A DNA stretch of 44,707 bases from a virus (lineage: Duplodnaviria; Heunggongvirae; Uroviricota; Caudoviricetes), in the IMG/VR virus record IMGVR_UViG_3300010965_000004, positions 1 through 44,707 of that record. One strand, written 5' to 3'. The number at the start of each line of letters is the position of its first letter. The first letter of the stretch is position 1. The position numbers and the translations under genes were made by a program. Positions 23,047-31,210 of this stretch are shown piece by piece. The notes below the pieces were generated by a model. It did no database searches. It was not told where the DNA came from and saw nothing but the letters and a program-made list of their open reading frames with translations.

Positions 23047-23125
23047 TGGTAGCGGAGGACGGATTTGAACCGACGATCTCGGGCTTATGAGGCCAGCGGG
23101 GACGACCAAACTCCCCTACTCCGCA
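23047..23125 (-). tRNA. trnM: tRNA-Met (CAU), initiator-like, CCA encoded
   Basis: Cloverleaf TGCGGAG/CTCCGCT, D arm GGGG/CCCC, loop CT-CAT-AA, T loop TTCAAAT, ACCA end; U1-U72 mismatch. Confidence 0.88.
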
Positions 23126-23138
23126 CCTATTAGATTCT

Positions 23139-23246
23139 TGGCTCTGGAGCCTGGGCTCGAACCAGGGACCAACGGATTAATTTGAACACCCATGTAAATA
23201 GATGTTCCGTATCAGTCCGTTGCTCTACCACCTGAGCTACTCCAGA
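23139..23246 (-). tRNA. trnN: tRNA with Asn-type body and a 32-nt insert (23181-23212) splitting the anticodon
   Basis: TCTGGAG/CTCCAGA acceptor, GCTC/GAGC D arm, ACGGA/TCCGT anticodon stem, CCTGG-TTCGAGC-CCAGG T arm, G73-CCA; 108 nt minus 32 gives 76 nt. Confidence 0.85.
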
Positions 23247-25189: not shown

Positions 25190-26203
25190 ATGGGCGGAAA
25201 AGCACTGGAAGCATTTGGGGCAAGAAGGTTTGCCAAGGAAGAATACGCAGCTTTGTCTTTAGAAATAAAGGAAAGGATAAAGAAATTTAGTCCCCTTGAA
25301 ATCCCTGCTTATTTTAGCAAAGAAACCTTTGGGGATTTGGACCTAATAGTTCCTACTCTACAAAAAGAAGATTACGAAGAAATCTGCGTTGCATTAAATT
25401 CCTGGATCTTTTTAAGGAATGATGATGTTATGTCTATTCTTTATGATGGTCTTCAGATTGACATTATCCCCATGTCTCCTGAGAATATAGTCACTGCCTA
25501 CAACTATTACTCATTCAACGATTTGGGTAATTTGATGGGAAAGATTTTCCATAAATTTGGCCTGAAATATGGGCATCGTGGACTGACCATGCCGGTACGA
25601 GATGGTACGCATCAAATTACAGAATTGGTTATCTCTAAGGACATCCAAAAGATTTTTGAATTTGGTGACTTCGAGTATAGTCATTTCAAGGAAGGTTTCA
25701 ATGACTTAAAAGAGATCTTCTCCTTTGTTTTATCCACCTCTTACTTTAACTCAGATGTTTATCAATACGAATCTCTTAATCATCATAACCGAATCAGGGA
25801 CAGGAAGAGGGCGACCTATCACGCTTTTCTTGAATACCTCAAACAACGTATCAGGTTCAATGGGGAATGGACTTCACTCGAGAAGTTATACTCGACGGAG
25901 GAAATGGGCTATCGGTTCTCAGAAAATAAAGACGACTACATCCCAATGATCTTTGATTTCTTCCCAGAAGCTAAAGCAGACTATGATATAGCTTTAGCCC
26001 AGAGAGAACTTCAACGAGCAATAAAAGCCAAATACAACGGCAATGTTGTTATGGAGATAACTGGGCTCAAAGGAATTAGCCTGGGCGAGTTCATGGGCTT
26101 CCTAAAACGTTGCTGGGACGAGGAAGAGGTAAATCTTTTAGACAAAAGCGAAGACTGGATCAAAGGCCAAATCTTTGCTATTTACAAGGAGTGGGTGGTA
26201 TGA
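25190..26203 (+). CDS. Pol-beta superfamily nucleotidyltransferase
   Basis: FGDLDLIV (GDxD) motif and later QIDII acidic strand. Confidence 0.7.
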   Translation: MGGKALEAFGARRFAKEEYAALSLEIKERIKKFSPLEIPAYFSKETFGDLDLIVPTLQKEDYEEICVALNSWIFLRNDDVMSILYDGLQIDIIPMSPENIVTAYNYYSFNDLGNLMGKIFHKFGLKYGHRGLTMPVRDGTHQITELVISKDIQKIFEFGDFEYSHFKEGFNDLKEIFSFVLSTSYFNSDVYQYESLNHHNRIRDRKRATYHAFLEYLKQRIRFNGEWTSLEKLYSTEEMGYRFSENKDDYIPMIFDFFPEAKADYDIALAQRELQRAIKAKYNGNVVMEITGLKGISLGEFMGFLKRCWDEEEVNLLDKSEDWIKGQIFAIYKEWVV

Positions 26204-27042
26204 TCCGAATCACAGGCCAGATGGGTACAAAACTGTATCCCATCGATTTTAAGAGCTTTGTTTTCTCCGGTGGAGAAGTCAGTGTAAAAATTACCGGAGA
26301 AACTGAATACTCTCGCTACTTTATTAGAGCTCTATTACAAAGTTCAAATGACGTGTTTGAGCTATTGATGGTTACAGACGCTCTACGGCGTATAGCCCCA
26401 AACACTCCAATAAACCTGGAGATGCCTTACATCCCTTACGCAAGACAGGATAGGGTCTGCGATCACGGAGAAGCTCTAAGCATTAGAGTGTTTGCTGATC
26501 TTATTAACGCTCAGAACTATAGCAGTGTTACTGTCTGGGATGCTCACTCTGAAGTAAGCTTGGCCTTACTAAACAAGTGTGCAAATATTAAGCCCTCTGT
26601 ATTTGTTACCAAGATTCCAGGTATTGATAAAATCTCTGTTCTTGTTTCCCCAGATGCTGGAGCAAACAAAAAGGTGTTTGAACTGGCCTATAGTCTTGGG
26701 GGTAAACGTGAAGTTTTACGGGCTGATAAGACAAGAGATGTAAAGACAGGTCAGATAACCGGAACAGTTGTTTACTGTGAAGACTTGGCTGGGGAAGACG
26801 TTCTCATTGTAGATGATATTGGGGATGGAATGAGGACTTTTATCGAATTAGGAAAGAAGTTAAAAGAAAAAAATGCAGGAAAGGTAATATTATTTGTAAC
26901 CCACGCTATTTGCTCTAAAGGAGTAGATGTTCTTAATGGTTCCGTTGATATTCTTTATTCTGCAAATCTTTGGGAAGAGAATATAAATGGAAGAAACGAA
27001 TTTGGAATCCTTAGAAATTTGGATACAGGTGCCAGGGTTTGA
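26200..27042 (+). CDS. prs: Ribose-phosphate pyrophosphokinase-like protein (candidate Adps of NARP1)
   Basis: FSGGEVSVKI, MPYIPYARQDR, DAHS, VSPDAGA, K.RD, VDDIGDGMRTF; ATGA overlap with the upstream stop. Confidence 0.88.
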   Translation: MIRITGQMGTKLYPIDFKSFVFSGGEVSVKITGETEYSRYFIRALLQSSNDVFELLMVTDALRRIAPNTPINLEMPYIPYARQDRVCDHGEALSIRVFADLINAQNYSSVTVWDAHSEVSLALLNKCANIKPSVFVTKIPGIDKISVLVSPDAGANKKVFELAYSLGGKREVLRADKTRDVKTGQITGTVVYCEDLAGEDVLIVDDIGDGMRTFIELGKKLKEKNAGKVILFVTHAICSKGVDVLNGSVDILYSANLWEENINGRNEFGILRNLDTGARV

Positions 27043-27568
27043 AGAATACTTTGAAGCAAGTTCTTTAGGTAGAATACGATCTACCGCTAGAACTATTATA
27101 TTTAGGGATAATAAACCTAATAGACGAATGGGTGGAAATATCCTTAAACAACAGATTGACAGGTGTGGGTATTTACGTGTCCGACCCAGCATAAACGGTA
27201 GAAAACTTGGGTTTATTGTTCATAGGATAATTGCTATAACTTTTATTCCTAATATAGATAATAAACCTCAGGTAAATCATAGGGATGGTGATAAAACCAA
27301 CAACGTTTGCACTAATCTCGAATGGGTTACGAATGGCGAAAATCAAAATCATGCTATAGAAACTGGTTTAAAAGTTATGCCTGTAGCTGAACAAGCCATA
27401 AGATTCACTGGTGCAGTAAAGGTTTTTAAAGATGGTACTCAAATAGATACCTTATACGGCAATGCAGATATGAAATCTAAAGGGTATGATTTCAGATTAG
27501 TGTCTGCTTGTCTAATGGGTAAACGACATACGCACAGAGAGTGCACATTTATAAAGGAAGAAGAATGA
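26987..27568 (+). mobile_element. NUMOD4-HNH homing endonuclease
   Basis: WIQVPGFEEYFEASSLGRIRS (NUMOD4); VHRIIA.TFIPN.DNKPQVNHRDGDKTNN...NLEWVT. Confidence 0.9.
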
Positions 27569-29064
27569 AGTTCATGAAAGCAATCAATGCCTGTGACTTT
27601 TACAAAACAGGCCACATTCGCCAATACCCCGAAGGTACGGAATTGGTTTATTCCAACTACACCCCAAGGTCGGATCGTTTGGCAAAAGTATTGCCTGACT
27701 TCTGGGATCACAAGGTCGTGTTCTATGGCATCCAAGGCCTGTGCAAAGCGTTCCTCATTGATCTGTTCAATGATACGTTTTTCTTAGTGGATCAACTGCA
27801 GGCCGTCAGCCACTACAAACGCCGTATGGATACCTCTCTTGGAGCCGGAGCGGTTAACATCAAGCACATTGCCGAGCTCTGGGATCTTGGCTATTTACCA
27901 GTTGAAATCAAGGCCTTACCAGAGGGTAGCAAGGTGAACATGAACGTGCCAGTTTTCACGATCAAAAACACTCTGCCGCAGTTCTACTGGATCACCAACT
28001 ATCTGGAAACCTTGATCTCAGCTGAGATCTGGAAGTTGATGACAACGGCTACGATTGCTTACGAATATCGTAAGCTGATCAATTTCTATGCTGACAAGAC
28101 AGGCAGCTTCAAAGAGTTTGCTCCTTGGCAAGGACACGATTTTTCGATGCGGGGAATGTCTGGTGTTTACGATGCTGGTTCTTCTGGTAGTGCCCACTTG
28201 CTATCTTTCTATGGCACGGATACGATTCCTGCAATTGATTATCTGGAAGAGTATTACAATGCCAATGCTGCAACGGAATTGATCGGGGGTTCAGTCCCGG
28301 CAACCGAACACAGCGTGATGTGCATGGGTGGCAACGAAACTGAAGTTGACACATTCCGTCGCTTGATTACTGAAGTTTATCCTGCAGGTATCGTGTCCAT
28401 TGTTTCGGATACGTGGGACTTCTGGAAGGTGATCACGGAATATGCACTGACTCTCAAGGATGAAATCCTGGCTCGTAAGCTTGACCCGTTGGGTATGGCC
28501 AAGGTTGTGTTCAGGCCAGACAGTGGGGATCCTGTTGATATCATCTGTGGGGACTCGGCTACAGAGAAAGGTAGCCCTGCTTTTAAAGGTGCCGTTGAAT
28601 GCCTCTGGGACATCTTTGGAGGCGATACAACGGAAAAGGGTTACAAGACCCTAAGCCAGCGTGTCGGCTTAATCTACGGCGATTCTATCACCCTGGAACG
28701 GGCAGAGCAAATCTTCAAGCGTTTGGGAGCCAAGGGGTTCTCAGCCGGTAACATCGTGTTTGGTATTGGTAGCTATACGTACCAGTATTGTACTCGTGAC
28801 ACCTTTGGTCAGGCTATCAAAGCTACTTACGGGGTTGTCAACGGACAGGAACGTGAACTGTGGAAAGACCCAGTGACTGATGATGGTCGCAAGAAGTCGG
28901 CAAAGGGTCTGTTGAGAGTGGAGAAGGAAGGCGACAACTTCGTTCTGTATGATCAGCAGTCACAGAAACAAGAGATGGAAGGTGCTCTTGACACCGTTTT
29001 CCTTAATGGTAAAATGGTTAAGGAAACCAGCCTGGCTGAAATAAGAGGCAGACTCAATGGGTAA
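27565..29064 (+). CDS. Nicotinamide phosphoribosyltransferase-like protein (candidate Namat of NARP1)
   Basis: DFYKTGH, HDFSMRG, GTDT, PATEHSVM, SIVSDTWD, RPDSGDP, IYGDSI, FGIGSY, KKSAKG. Confidence 0.92.
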   Translation: MKFMKAINACDFYKTGHIRQYPEGTELVYSNYTPRSDRLAKVLPDFWDHKVVFYGIQGLCKAFLIDLFNDTFFLVDQLQAVSHYKRRMDTSLGAGAVNIKHIAELWDLGYLPVEIKALPEGSKVNMNVPVFTIKNTLPQFYWITNYLETLISAEIWKLMTTATIAYEYRKLINFYADKTGSFKEFAPWQGHDFSMRGMSGVYDAGSSGSAHLLSFYGTDTIPAIDYLEEYYNANAATELIGGSVPATEHSVMCMGGNETEVDTFRRLITEVYPAGIVSIVSDTWDFWKVITEYALTLKDEILARKLDPLGMAKVVFRPDSGDPVDIICGDSATEKGSPAFKGAVECLWDIFGGDTTEKGYKTLSQRVGLIYGDSITLERAEQIFKRLGAKGFSAGNIVFGIGSYTYQYCTRDTFGQAIKATYGVVNGQERELWKDPVTDDGRKKSAKGLLRVEKEGDNFVLYDQQSQKQEMEGALDTVFLNGKMVKETSLAEIRGRLNG

Positions 29065-29197
29065 GTTTCTGTGTTGGTTTGGGATTCATGACTGGGGTAA
29101 ATGGTCGGACAAAGAACCATCTGGATACCGTATGTATCCTTGGCAACAATTACGCACTTGTAAACGTTGTAACTTTGTAAACCGTACATTAGTTTAG
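29057..29197 (+). CDS. 46-aa Cys/His/Trp-rich protein (absent from ORF track)
   Basis: MGKFLCWFGIHDWGKW...CKRCNF, a C..FG.H.W...CxRC pattern seen in small phage proteins. Confidence 0.6.
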   Translation: MGKFLCWFGIHDWGKWSDKEPSGYRMYPWQQLRTCKRCNFVNRTLV

Positions 29198-29204
29198 TTG
29201 TAAA

Positions 29205-29230
29205 CAGGGGCCTTCGGGCCCTTGTCTTTT
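29205..29230 (+). terminator. Terminator-like hairpin
   Basis: CAGGGGCC-TTCG-GGCCCTTG with UUCG loop and short T tract. Confidence 0.65.
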
Positions 29231-29240
29231 AAAGGAGTCA

Positions 29241-29717
29241 ATGATGGCAGAAAACATAAATGTAGTAGCAAGCCCGGAAGTAGCTACAAACGATAATTTA
29301 GAACGTCGCTTGATTTTCCTGGCTGGGGGAATAACCGGATGTGGAGATTGGCAAACAAGTATCATAAACCTGATTGATGTTAAGGTTAATGGTTCTGGTA
29401 AAGATATTTGTCTCCTAAATCCAAGGCGTAAAGAATTTGATGTTAATAAGCCTTTAATGACTAAGGACCAAATAGACTGGGAGTATAAATACCTCAGACT
29501 AGCAAAAGAAATTGTGTTCTGGTTTCCACAAGAAACACTTTGCCCAATAACGTTATTTGAGTTGGGAGCAGCACTGGAAAGAAGTCAGAAGTTGTATATA
29601 GGCTGTAACCAAGATTACAAGCGTAGATCTGACGTTGAATACCAGACCTATCTGAAACGTCCCAAATTACAAATTGTTTATTCTATAAAGGACTTGGCTG
29701 ACCAAGTATTGGCATAA
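29241..29717 (+). CDS. Nucleoside 2-deoxyribosyltransferase-like protein
   Basis: IFLAGGI...WQ, LNPRR, QIDWE, FWFP.ETLCPITLFELG. Confidence 0.8.
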   Translation: MMAENINVVASPEVATNDNLERRLIFLAGGITGCGDWQTSIINLIDVKVNGSGKDICLLNPRRKEFDVNKPLMTKDQIDWEYKYLRLAKEIVFWFPQETLCPITLFELGAALERSQKLYIGCNQDYKRRSDVEYQTYLKRPKLQIVYSIKDLADQVLA

Positions 29718-30547
29718 TGAAAACATACCGTTTCTCCACTCTTGGGGATGAACAAAAGAAATACGAGCAGCTAAAGGCAGGAGAGACGGCGATGTTTGGT
29801 CTCCCTGTTATAGCAAGGTTAGATGGTAGAGGGTTCCACAACTTTACCAAAGGGCTACGCCGTCCTTACGATGAAGCTCTTAGTTCATGCATGATGGACA
29901 CAGCTATCTATTTACTCAATTTAGCAAACCCAAATATAGTCTATACTCAGAGCGACGAGATAACTTTGATTTGGGCAAACCAATACGAAGAAGATAAAGA
30001 AACCAAAGTTTTCTTCAAGGGCAAAATTCAAAAGATGGTTTCCATTTTAGCAGCAATGGCTACTAGCGAATTTCAATGCAGTATGCGCCAACGTATTGAA
30101 TCAAAGGCCGACGAACAACCGCTTTTTGATTGTCGTGTTTGGCAAGTTCCCAATCTTCAAGTAGCTGCTGAAAATCTTCTATGGAGAGAAATGGATGCAA
30201 CTAAAAATAGTATTACTATGGCTGCATCAGCTTACTATCCTCATAAAGAACTAGAGGGAAAACATTCAGGGGACAAACATGAGATGCTATTACAAAAAGG
30301 CATCAACTGGAATGACTACCCTAACTTTTTCAAAAAAGGGTCTTACTTTACCAAACGTAAAACCTTGGTAAACTTAACAAAGGATGAGCTGGAAAAAATC
30401 CCTGAAAAGCATCGCCCTGAAGGTCCAATAGAAAGAAGTGTTGTGGCTGAGTTGCTCATTCCTAAGGCTACCAGCATTGCTAATCTGGTAGGGGTTTACT
30501 TCCGTGGGGAAGATCCTTTACTATTGCACAACGAAAGGGGAAGTTGA
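29717..30547 (+). CDS. thg1: tRNA(His) guanylyltransferase Thg1-like (3'-5' polymerase)
   Basis: RLDGRGFHNFT, YTQSDEITL, FDCR, R..DA.KNS. Confidence 0.9.
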   Translation: MKTYRFSTLGDEQKKYEQLKAGETAMFGLPVIARLDGRGFHNFTKGLRRPYDEALSSCMMDTAIYLLNLANPNIVYTQSDEITLIWANQYEEDKETKVFFKGKIQKMVSILAAMATSEFQCSMRQRIESKADEQPLFDCRVWQVPNLQVAAENLLWREMDATKNSITMAASAYYPHKELEGKHSGDKHEMLLQKGINWNDYPNFFKKGSYFTKRKTLVNLTKDELEKIPEKHRPEGPIERSVVAELLIPKATSIANLVGVYFRGEDPLLLHNERGS

Positions 30548-30741
30548 TGTCAATGTTTGGACCAAAGATGGGAACCTGGTGGGTCGAAAGTAAATTAGAC
30601 CCACGATGGAATACAAATGGGAAGGGCTACGGATTAGTAGTAACCGGAGGCCCTGGTGAGATAAACCAATGGATTGCCCAATGCGAAAAGACTTTTGGTA
30701 AAAAACCAGATGATCTTGAAATTGGATTTATGAAAGATTGA
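30547..30741 (+). CDS. Small Trp-rich hypothetical protein
   Basis: Coupled start and stop with neighbours. Confidence 0.6.
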   Translation: MSMFGPKMGTWWVESKLDPRWNTNGKGYGLVVTGGPGEINQWIAQCEKTFGKKPDDLEIGFMKD

Positions 30742-30742
30742 T

Positions 30743-31210
30743 ATGCAAAACGTTAACGGGGAATGACTCCCAACCATAACAGACACTCAGATTCTTGGTT
30801 TCTTCGGGGATTATCGTTTCCTGAGTAATTTTCATAAGGCTCCAGTAATTGTTCAAAGTATATCGTATCCGTCCTCTGAACATGCGTATATGGCTATGAA
30901 GTCTATAGCTTATGCTGACCGCGCACATATAGCTTCTATACCTAAGGCCAGTGATGCAAAGAAATTTGGTCAAACAGTTGAACTCCGTTCTAATTGGGAG
31001 GACATCAAGATAGCTATGATGTACAAAGTTTGTTACCCAAAATTCCTACAAAATACTGATTTAAAGCAATTACTTTTATCTACTGGTGATAAGTATCTTG
31101 AAGAAACAAATTACTGGAAGGATACTACTTGGGGTGTTTGTAACAGGATAGGTACTAACTACCTTGGGAAAGTTCTTATGGCCGTCAGAGAGGATATTCG
31201 TTTAATTTAA
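30743..31210 (+). pseudogene. NADAR (YbiA-like) hydrolase with in-frame TGA at codon 8
   Basis: In-frame FFGDYRFLSNF...YPSSEHAY.A.K, AKKFG, WED.K...M, KF.QN..L..LL.TG..YL.E...W.D..WG, N.LG..LM.VR; ATG 30743, TGA 30764-30766. Confidence 0.75.

Follow-up and report, generated by a model that had tools for sequence, protein, structure and literature searches.

A viral tRNA gene whose anticodon loop is split by a short hairpin raises the question whether the gene still yields a working tRNA, which tRNA this would be and how the hairpin could be removed. We analyzed such a gene in a window of 44,707 nucleotides, the first 44.7 kb of an IMG/VR viral contig of 108.7 kb which is about 61% complete; the window also encodes a terminase, a helicase and the NAD-salvage genes NAMPT and NADAR. 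A first-pass annotation had described a 76-nt cloverleaf with encoded CCA which is interrupted by a hairpin insert, and this description was confirmed on the minus strand by Rfam, by ARAGORN and by folding. The parts of the locus are as follows.

23139..23246, minus strand: interrupted tRNA-Asn(GUU) gene with encoded CCA, 108 nt, 76 nt without the insert (Rfam RF00005, ARAGORN)
23213..23246, minus strand: 5' exon, 34 nt, with the 5' strand of the acceptor stem, the D arm, the 5' strand of the anticodon stem and C32 U33 G34 (sequence, ARAGORN)
23181..23212, minus strand: putative mini-intron, 32 nt (fold, family alignment with covariation, covariance model)
23212..23208, minus strand: 5' spacer of the intron, ATACG
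23207..23198 and 23193..23184, minus strand: arms of the intron hairpin, GAACATCTAT and ATGGGTGTTC, 10 bp with two U.G pairs
23197..23194, minus strand: loop of the intron hairpin, TTAC
23183..23181, minus strand: 3' spacer of the intron, AAA
23139..23180, minus strand: 3' exon, 42 nt including CCA, with U35 U36 A37 A38, the 3' strand of the anticodon stem, the variable loop, the T arm, the 3' strand of the acceptor stem and G73 (sequence, ARAGORN)
23047..23125, minus strand: neighbouring tRNA(CAU), with a 1-72 mismatch (ARAGORN; Rfam 46 bits)

Read on the minus strand the whole insert is ATACG-GAACATCTAT-TTAC-ATGGGTGTTC-AAA. The Rfam tRNA model gives the gene 55 bits (gathering score 29) and places an insertion of about 33 nt into the anticodon loop. 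All landmarks of the cloverleaf are present, namely a 7-bp acceptor stem, U8, A14, G18G19, the T-loop UUCGAGC, G73 and CCA, and the earlier argument that unmutated arms speak against decay can be upheld. ARAGORN misses the tRNA in its default bacterial mode; when introns are allowed, it reports tRNA-Asn(gtt) and an intron of 32 nt between positions 34 and 35. The precursor is predicted to fold with −44.5 kcal/mol (z = −4.3), a value equalled by none of 200 shuffled sequences, and this fold contains the 10-bp hairpin with its two U.G pairs. The tRNA(CAU) gene follows on the same strand 13 nt downstream, and no promoter or terminator of its own was found between the two genes, which are probably co-transcribed.

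We searched IMG/VR and the JGI metagenomes with two patterns, the first describing an interrupted anticodon arm of the Asn/Lys type and the second the two hairpin arms alone. In total 16 tRNAs (Asn, Lys, Leu-UAA, Tyr and CAU) were identified, on no fewer than 13 contigs of phages or metagenomes which are only distantly related to one another. One layout is common to all 16: N34, a spacer of 4–5 nt, a hairpin of 8–12 bp, a spacer of 2–3 nt and N35. The window member has a layout of 5 nt, 10 bp with a 4-nt loop and 3 nt, with which the 15 further members match. The 3' spacer measures 3 nt in 12 of the 16 members and 2 nt in the rest, and the last base of the 5' exon is G, U or C across the family. 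The AUCU/GGGU core of the hairpin in the window is found in nine tRNAs, most of them with the flanks N-UACG ... AAA. These are tRNA-Asn of the window and of the 350-kb phage G001, class II tRNA-Leu(UAA) of the carriers G002, G003, G004, G006 and G007, class II tRNA-Tyr(GUA) of G005 and a tRNA with the anticodon CAU of G003. A tenth and partial member, the second Tyr tRNA of G006, has the UCU/GGG centre alone in common with them, and six more Asn/Lys tRNAs have unrelated hairpin sequences in the same layout (5-nt spacer, 8–12-bp hairpin, 2–3-nt spacer). Since very few proteins are common to the carriers according to blastp, the carriers are not close relatives.

A covariance model of the family (R1) gives the window 62.8 bits and found every member again together with one new one. 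In 814 kb of contigs whose tRNA-Asn genes lack an intron it had no further match, and in 870 kb of random contigs, which contain the arm motif by chance, it had just two matches, both of them weak and partial. A scan of 185,579 cellular species with a single narrow pattern led to seven matches, all of them tandem-duplication artefacts or chance, and among the metagenome matches L049, L053, L058 and L062 were set aside as artefact-like duplications and L063 as a chance match. An exact-exon pattern with a gap had two matches, neither being a tRNA, and a first loose pattern mostly matched ordinary tRNAs because AATCCG occurs in T-loops too. Neither a megablast search of the locus against the GenBank phages nor a terminase-based search for relatives gave a match. 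According to the first-pass annotation the locus could be a one-off insertion unless the same insert, with covariation, occurs in relatives; such inserts were found, and by these comparisons the insert is a member of a recurrent, structured and phage-borne family.

The first-pass annotation had given two outcomes for the excision, GUU (Asn) by a cut at 34/35 and GAU (Ile) by cuts further downstream. The body is of the Asn type, with U1-A72 and G73. When the spliced 76-mer was compared without gaps to 96 intron-less tRNA-Asn(GUU) genes from about 97 viral loci, about 90 of them had 60–67 identities in 76 positions, and all of the aligned intron-less genes have U1 and G73-CCA. The 7-nt loop CUGUUAA is restored solely when the boundaries are placed at G34|U35, because the insert begins and ends with A. 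The genome record contains 26 Rfam tRNA matches corresponding to about 24 convincing tRNA genes. Among these there is a normal tRNA-Ile(GAU) at 85342–85417 and no second tRNA-Asn, and all 20 amino acids are covered only when the interrupted gene is read as Asn. The sister introns are also informative. In the class II bodies of Leu and Tyr type the anticodons matching the body, UAA and GUA, require a cut at 34/35, and the fitting cut lies 4–5 nt before and 2–3 nt after the hairpin. ARAGORN also considers other cut points and for this reason labels several sisters as Arg, Lys or Ile.

Excision at 37/38 or nearby would yield a tRNA-Ile(GAU), and removal of 32 nt at the registers +1 to +4 indeed also leaves a 7-nt loop (CUGAUAA or CUGAUAC). 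This reading is opposed by the Asn-type body, by the presence of a tRNA-Ile(GAU) in a genome that has no other Asn gene and by the sisters of Leu and Tyr type, which are compatible with 34/35 alone. An assembly artefact is ruled out by the occurrence of the same architecture in many independent assemblies, and the artefact-like matches found elsewhere are tandem duplications quite unlike the hairpin insert. Taken together, an Ile outcome or an artefact is highly improbable. On the evidence of the sequence the identity of the gene is resolved as tRNA-Asn(GUU) and not Ile; of the two outcomes proposed earlier, GUU via 34/35 stands and GAU is to be dropped.

The conservation of the hairpin was evaluated with a 15-member alignment and 500 shuffles. 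Of the cells in the hairpin 90.2% are paired compared to 72.6% in the shuffled alignments (0 of 500 as high) and 29–46% when the partner columns are slid, values which are somewhat inflated because the members outside the core group were partly picked for hairpin folding; within the core group the search pattern had set both arms. Changes on both sides were seen in eight of the ten hairpin pairs, and the covariation score is 0.543 compared to 0.229 in the shuffles, none of the 500 being as high. Two U.G wobble pairs flanking a C-G pair are conserved; the other strand or a DNA hairpin would have A.C mismatches at these positions, so that the hairpin is specific for the RNA strand. In the Leu-type carriers the anticodon stems differ by compensatory changes (UCAGA/UCUGA, CGAGA/UCUCG and GAAGA/UCUUC) and the intron is nearly constant. 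These patterns indicate that selection acts on the hairpin as an RNA structure.

In eight of ten carrier records no other gene supplies the isoacceptor of the interrupted one. The exceptions are G001, which has three intact Asn genes beside the interrupted one, and G007, which also has an uninterrupted copy of the isoacceptor, so that the interrupted copy could be dispensable in these two. Judged by their bodies and their isoacceptor status the interrupted genes look alive.

The insert does not fit the known classes of introns. The first-pass annotation had considered it far too short for a group I intron, and this is borne out: the insert has 32 nt, no catalytic core and no match to RF00028 at E ≤ 10. 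The hallmarks of group I are also missing, since the 5' exon ends with G34 instead of U and the intron with A instead of G, and the same Rfam search does recognize a genuine group I intron at another place of the genome. In agreement with the earlier attempt, no canonical bulge–helix–bulge motif could be drawn. The precursor folds with an internal loop of 8 x 7 nt or with a weak 4-bp helix containing both sites, and according to the sequence the intron positions 1–4 are unable to pair with the positions 35–38.

One may also ask whether the intron splices or cleaves itself, either as a very small ribozyme or as one scaffolded by the tRNA body. Strong conservation is seen at the spacer positions A3, C4 and A31 and in the lower stem with the two U.G pairs, which could reflect a catalytic or metal-binding motif. 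A plain hairpin of 32 nt, however, leaves no space for a catalytic core, and besides the absent group I hallmarks the hairpin sequences of other members are unrelated. Rfam searches of either strand at E ≤ 10 matched tRNA alone and no ribozyme (hammerhead, twister, pistol, hatchet, HDV-like). We consider self-processing very unlikely. A hammerhead-like CUGAU consists of C32 U33 G34 and two intron bases and is missing from the Lys and Leu members, a K-turn can be rejected as tandem G.A pairs are absent, and an alternative pairing via an ACGGA repeat within the intron was dropped as the repeat is not conserved in the metagenome member L024.

We examined the genome record for enzymes which could remove the insert and join the exons. 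The genes of a putative joining operon and a further gene of the tRNA-maintenance set of the phage are given below; the first three lie outside the window.

66654–67808 of the genome record: Rnl1 (RNA ligase 1) with a T4_Rnl1_C domain (PF09511, 6.9e-21; PF20819, 5.8e-16)
67812–68234 of the genome record: polynucleotide kinase (AAA_33, 2.2e-08)
68231–68701 of the genome record: PNKP phosphatase (HAD_PNKP, 2e-23)
29717..30547 of the window, plus strand: Thg1-like protein of the tRNA 5'-end repair type (Pfam Thg1, 6.8e-27; Thg1C)

The adjacent reading frames of Rnl1, kinase and phosphatase form one operon (66654–68701). The genome furthermore encodes, at 73452–74573 of the record, a ligase of the Rnl5 type, which matches the structure of the Naegleria RNA ligase at 5e-83, and homologs of the Thg1-like protein were found by blastp in the carriers G001 and G009. 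Most of the carrier records are fragments. Each of the four carriers with a completeness of 44% or more encodes Rnl1, compared to 0 of 29 viral contigs used as controls (one-sided Fisher p = 0.0036); these controls include complete genomes of up to 436 kb and are unmatched for tRNA content and phylogeny. Pnkp and Rnl1 of T4 are known to seal tRNA halves made by an endonuclease in vitro, and in vivo they can take the place of the splicing ligase of yeast (PMC1920235). The carrier G001, which is 97% complete, lacks the PNKP phosphatase; heal-and-seal thus cannot be the universal route, and the cuts may leave 3'-OH and 5'-phosphate ends.

The search for the cutting enzyme had a different outcome. 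EndA (PF01974) has no match in the 108.7-kb record, which is 61% complete, and a control search with PF01974 gave matches solely in archaea. RtcB is likewise absent from the genome record. Of the EndA, RtcB and Rnl-type enzymes which the first-pass annotation had proposed to look for, the record hence contains Rnl1 and Rnl5 but neither EndA nor RtcB. No conserved nuclease was found beside the interrupted tRNA, whose neighbours match no family, and the neighbours of Rnl1 in G001, G004 and G009 have nothing relevant in common. The reading frame heading the Rnl1 operon is an orphan with a faint likeness to NinX/DUF2591, and its single-sequence structure model has a mean pLDDT of 33. When the proteins of all carriers were clustered, the sole candidate was a DNA-type HNH endonuclease, which was also the most widely shared family. 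Several known RNases were rejected on the geometry of the sequence. RNase III is expected to produce a 2-nt 3' overhang, and the cuts here would give a 5' overhang of 1 nt; for RNase P or RNase Z the junctions are 5 and 3 nt away from the base of the hairpin, and their distance from the hairpin loop varies among the members; for RNase E the cut sites have no common sequence. On the basis of gene content, the joining side of a splicing reaction is much better supported than the cutting side. The earlier idea of a phage-encoded tRNA splicing fares accordingly: the conserved insert, the covariation, the Rnl1/kinase/phosphatase operon, Rnl5 and the association of Rnl1 with the carriers give it real though indirect support, whereas EndA and RtcB are missing and no cutting enzyme was found.

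We favor the reading that the insert is spliced out to give a working tRNA-Asn, with a probability of roughly 0.6. The more specific proposal, a working phage tRNA-Asn(GUU) gene with a protein-dependent mini-intron of the recurrent phage family and with Rnl1 as the ligase, stands in our judgement at about even odds. In the proposed pathway tRNA-Asn would be transcribed with its minus-strand neighbours, and its precursor would contain the large internal loop of 8 x 7 nt, with the anticodon stem on one side and the intron hairpin on the other. The junctions G34|A and A|U35 would then each lie 3 nt 3' of the end of a helix, in the first case the anticodon stem (C32 U33 N34) and in the second the intron hairpin with its 3-nt spacer. 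Such a nearly two-fold geometry would suit a structure-reading and possibly dimeric endonuclease of the host or the phage. The exon ends, now lying in the anticodon loop, would be joined by the phage RNA ligase 1 of T4 type, and cuts leaving 3'-OH and 5'-phosphate ends would need no healing. The spliced junction would join ...GAGCAACGGACUG to UUAAUCCGUUGG... (...GGACUG-UUAAUCC...) in the 76-nt product. From the sequence we infer transcription, excision and ligation, the action of the ligase on this tRNA and the symmetry argument for the nuclease. In a still wider form, which we put forward tentatively and at less than even odds, the family would be a third kind of phage tRNA intron, i.e., a mobile hairpin of about 32 nt at 34/35 which a structure-reading endonuclease cuts 3 nt past each helix and Rnl1 rejoins, so that repair enzymes would double as the splicing ligase or would have evolved into it.

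The RNA might instead be used unspliced. tRNA-Lys, -Asn and -Tyr are targets of anticodon nucleases and tRNA-targeting defences such as PrrC, PARIS, retron PtuAB and colicin E5, and the interrupted tRNAs for Lys, Asn and Tyr coincide with these targets. The phage also invests in counter-defence (Rnl1 and Pnkp, the Thg1-like protein, NAMPT and NADAR). The unspliced RNA could mimic a tRNA and serve the phage as decoy or sponge for the anticodon nucleases of the host, or it could be a precursor held in reserve beyond their reach. A decoy, however, needs neither an exact 7-nt loop after excision nor identity elements matching the body nor the status of sole isoacceptor, and the target of these nucleases is the intact anticodon loop, which is destroyed by the insert itself. 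We regard a function of the unspliced RNA as unlikely.

Several observations point to mobility of the insert. The tRNA-Leu(UAA) gene of the genome harbors a resident group I intron with an HNH reading frame at the 34/35 site (80081–80816 of the genome record; RF00028, 74.5 bits). In five other phages the same site of tRNA-Leu(UAA) holds the mini-intron, the D-arm of G007 being identical. A derivation of the mini-intron from the resident group I intron was rejected since the scores of local alignments fall inside the shuffled null. Further mobile genes are present in the genome: thymidylate synthase is host to a GIY-YIG gene, and an HNH gene stands free. In four carriers a family of free-standing HNH endonucleases, 69–81% identical, is encoded 1.6–10 kb from the interrupted tRNA. 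This proximity, together with one core at one site in four tRNA identities, fits a mobile element.

One could go further and consider the insert as a selfish DNA element, small and palindromic, or the footprint of one, which targets the DNA of anticodon loops and is perhaps moved in trans by homing endonucleases, the inactive tRNA being tolerated. The same insert at one site in tRNAs for Asn, Leu-UAA, Tyr and CAU looks like ectopic homing, and the wealth of mobile introns and endonucleases in the genome, the HNH family near the interrupted tRNA, the three intact Asn genes kept in G001 and the unsuccessful search for a splicing nuclease are all in line with it. Against a dead gene stand the intact tRNA bodies with compensatory stem changes across divergent carriers, the sole isoacceptors in eight of ten records and the link to Rnl1, which is unexpected for dead genes; moreover, the U.G pairs and the covariation concern the RNA strand and not a DNA palindrome. 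We assign this reading a minor share of the probability, about one chance in five. Mobility and splicing do not exclude each other, since it is splicing that allows mobile introns to persist.

According to textbooks the tRNA introns of bacteria and phages are self-splicing group I introns, and tRNA introns removed by proteins are a feature of archaea and eukaryotes. A conserved hairpin of 32 nt without a ribozyme in intact and often unique phage tRNA genes would thus imply an enzyme-driven route of tRNA splicing in bacterial cells, and the sequence data point to tRNA splicing of a kind not known in bacteria or their viruses. The group I introns of tRNA-Leu(UAA) share the insertion site at 34/35; they exceed 200 nt and have a catalytic core, a 5' U and a terminal G, all of which the 32-nt insert lacks. 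The protein-spliced introns of archaea and eukaryotes resemble the insert in being short, in their location in the anticodon loop and in the lack of a ribozyme, their junctions are single-stranded beside helices in a roughly two-fold arrangement, and joining could use a heal-and-seal ligase pathway in both cases. They are found, however, at 37/38 with a 3-nt bulge, a 4-bp helix and a 3-nt bulge and depend on EndA/TSEN and RtcB or Trl1, whereas the insert of the window lies at 34/35, allows no such motif to be drawn and occurs in a phage whose host is presumably bacterial. The restriction-repair system of T4, in which Pnkp and Rnl1 act after a cut by PrrC, has the same set of enzymes in one operon with the tRNA-specific C-terminal domain of Rnl1, and its substrate, a break in the anticodon loop beside the wobble base, would be similar. 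In T4 the enzymes mend host tRNA-Lys cut by a host nuclease; here they would mature the interrupted tRNAs of the phage itself.

The statement of the first-pass annotation that short tRNA introns are solely archaeal or eukaryotic overlooks a report on Lak megaphages, whose tRNAs contain introns termed 'enigmatic' (Devoto et al. 2019, PMC6784885). These are the nearest published precedent, since they too interrupt anticodon loops of phage tRNAs without belonging to group I; they are highly conserved between phage populations and have no known mechanism (PMC6784885). The intron of the Lak tRNA-Tyr, however, is 93 nt long, contains a tRNA-like arm (T-arm) and was placed after position 37 by a predictor in eukaryote mode (PMC6784885), in contrast to the bare 32-nt hairpin at 34/35 with its spacer rule, a core in four tRNA identities and a link to Rnl1. 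The hairpin form, the 34/35 rule, the spread across tRNA identities and the Rnl1 link were absent from the literature searched.

Should the proposed splicing hold true, Rnl1 and Pnkp, known so far just for their action against host anticodon nucleases, would gain a second, housekeeping role, a new specificity of an RNA endonuclease would be to be found, and the family would be a living example of a protein-dependent intron occupying a group I site (34/35 of tRNA-Leu-UAA). The small size and clear definition of the element would permit a direct test, as the transcript has 108 nt and two cut sites and a single junction are predicted. Since the default bacterial tRNA finders miss such genes, the tRNA sets of phages, and with them predictions of codon and suppressor use, are under-counted.

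The phage of the window carries a second interrupted tRNA gene, as well as a split protein gene. Positions in the following lists are those of the whole 108.7-kb record where marked as genome; L001 to L004 are stretches of this genome.

L001:4547-5367 (genome 80046-80866): class II tRNA-Leu(UAA), interrupted by an intron at genome 80081-80816
L003:19065-19293 and L004:1-1597 (genome 63772-65597): thymidylate synthase in two pieces

The interruption of the tRNA-Leu(UAA), for which ARAGORN gives the wrong label Phe(gaa), is a 736-nt group I intron at the U34/A35 junction (Rfam RF00028, 74.5 bits) and bears an HNH_3 endonuclease ORF (genome 79940-80680). Its insertion site is identical to that of the mini-intron, the short hairpin insert, found in the tRNA-Leu(UAA) of other phages. 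Between both thymidylate synthase pieces lies a gene for a GIY-YIG/I-TevI-like endonuclease (genome 64389-65168), an arrangement similar to that of the phage T4 td intron.

The RNA ligase genes of this phage and of G004, another phage with the mini-intron, are arranged as follows.

L004:2654-4701 (genome 66654-68701): T4 Rnl1-type ligase, polynucleotide kinase ORF and PNKP phosphatase ORF in one operon
L229:8779-10727 and L192:964-3091 (G004): split Rnl1 and Rnl5 RNA ligase genes

Kinase and phosphatase are separate ORFs, and the operon begins with a 237-aa NinX-like orphan (genome 65944-66657) which overlaps the Rnl1 start codon. In G004 the Rnl1 and Rnl5 genes are each interrupted by an opposite-strand ORF, the one within Rnl1 being GIY-YIG-like; here the ligase genes themselves are invaded by mobile elements.

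Few proteins are common to the phage of the window and the other mini-intron carriers, with NAMPT, NADAR and the Thg1-like protein among them. In the window all three are encoded in a gene block that has the look of counter-defence.

Window 26110-31210: PRPP synthetase-like, NAMPT, nucleoside deoxyribosyltransferase-like, Thg1-like and NADAR genes

Several further tRNA-like genes are unusual.

L001:416-696 (genome 75915-76195): permuted (two-piece) tmRNA, Rfam RF04321, 116 bits
L001:17014-17098 (genome 92513-92597): tRNA-like gene, Rfam 47.8 bits, without ARAGORN call
L001:1141-1264 (genome 76640-76763) and L002:4442-4556 (genome 97442-97556): over-long tRNA-like matches, 32 and 36 bits
Window 23047-23125, minus strand: tRNA(CAU), neighbour of the interrupted tRNA-Asn
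L051:7387-7481, L051:12009-12203, L052:10730-10825, L054:1430-1525, L042:3561-3655, L056:725-819 and L065 (other contigs): tRNAs with a second, shorter insert design
L210:6632-6749 (positions 246632-246749 of the 350-kb carrier phage G001), minus strand: class I tRNA enlarged by a 40-nt insert

The permuted tmRNA gene is located immediately upstream of the main tRNA cluster. The gene at 92513-92597 has an anticodon "loop" of 15 nt including UUCUAGA, possibly providing a CUA (amber-reading) anticodon. Both over-long matches contain inserts of 40-50 nt, whose layout does not match that of the hairpin mini-introns. In the tRNA(CAU) positions 1 and 72 are unpaired (U opposite U) and the D-loop is enlarged; it may be of the initiator, elongator Met or Ile2 type.

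The shorter anticodon-loop insert measures about 21-22 nt, compared with 32 nt in the window, and consists of a small hairpin immediately 3′ of the wobble region and, behind it, a tail of 5-6 nt, e.g., ACAAAG; one 115-kb contig has up to three such tRNAs. The G001 insert runs in the order GCGAA, long hairpin, AAA. It seems to enter the anticodon loop at its 5′ edge, not at 34/35, and may be an insert resembling the mini-intron at a different position.
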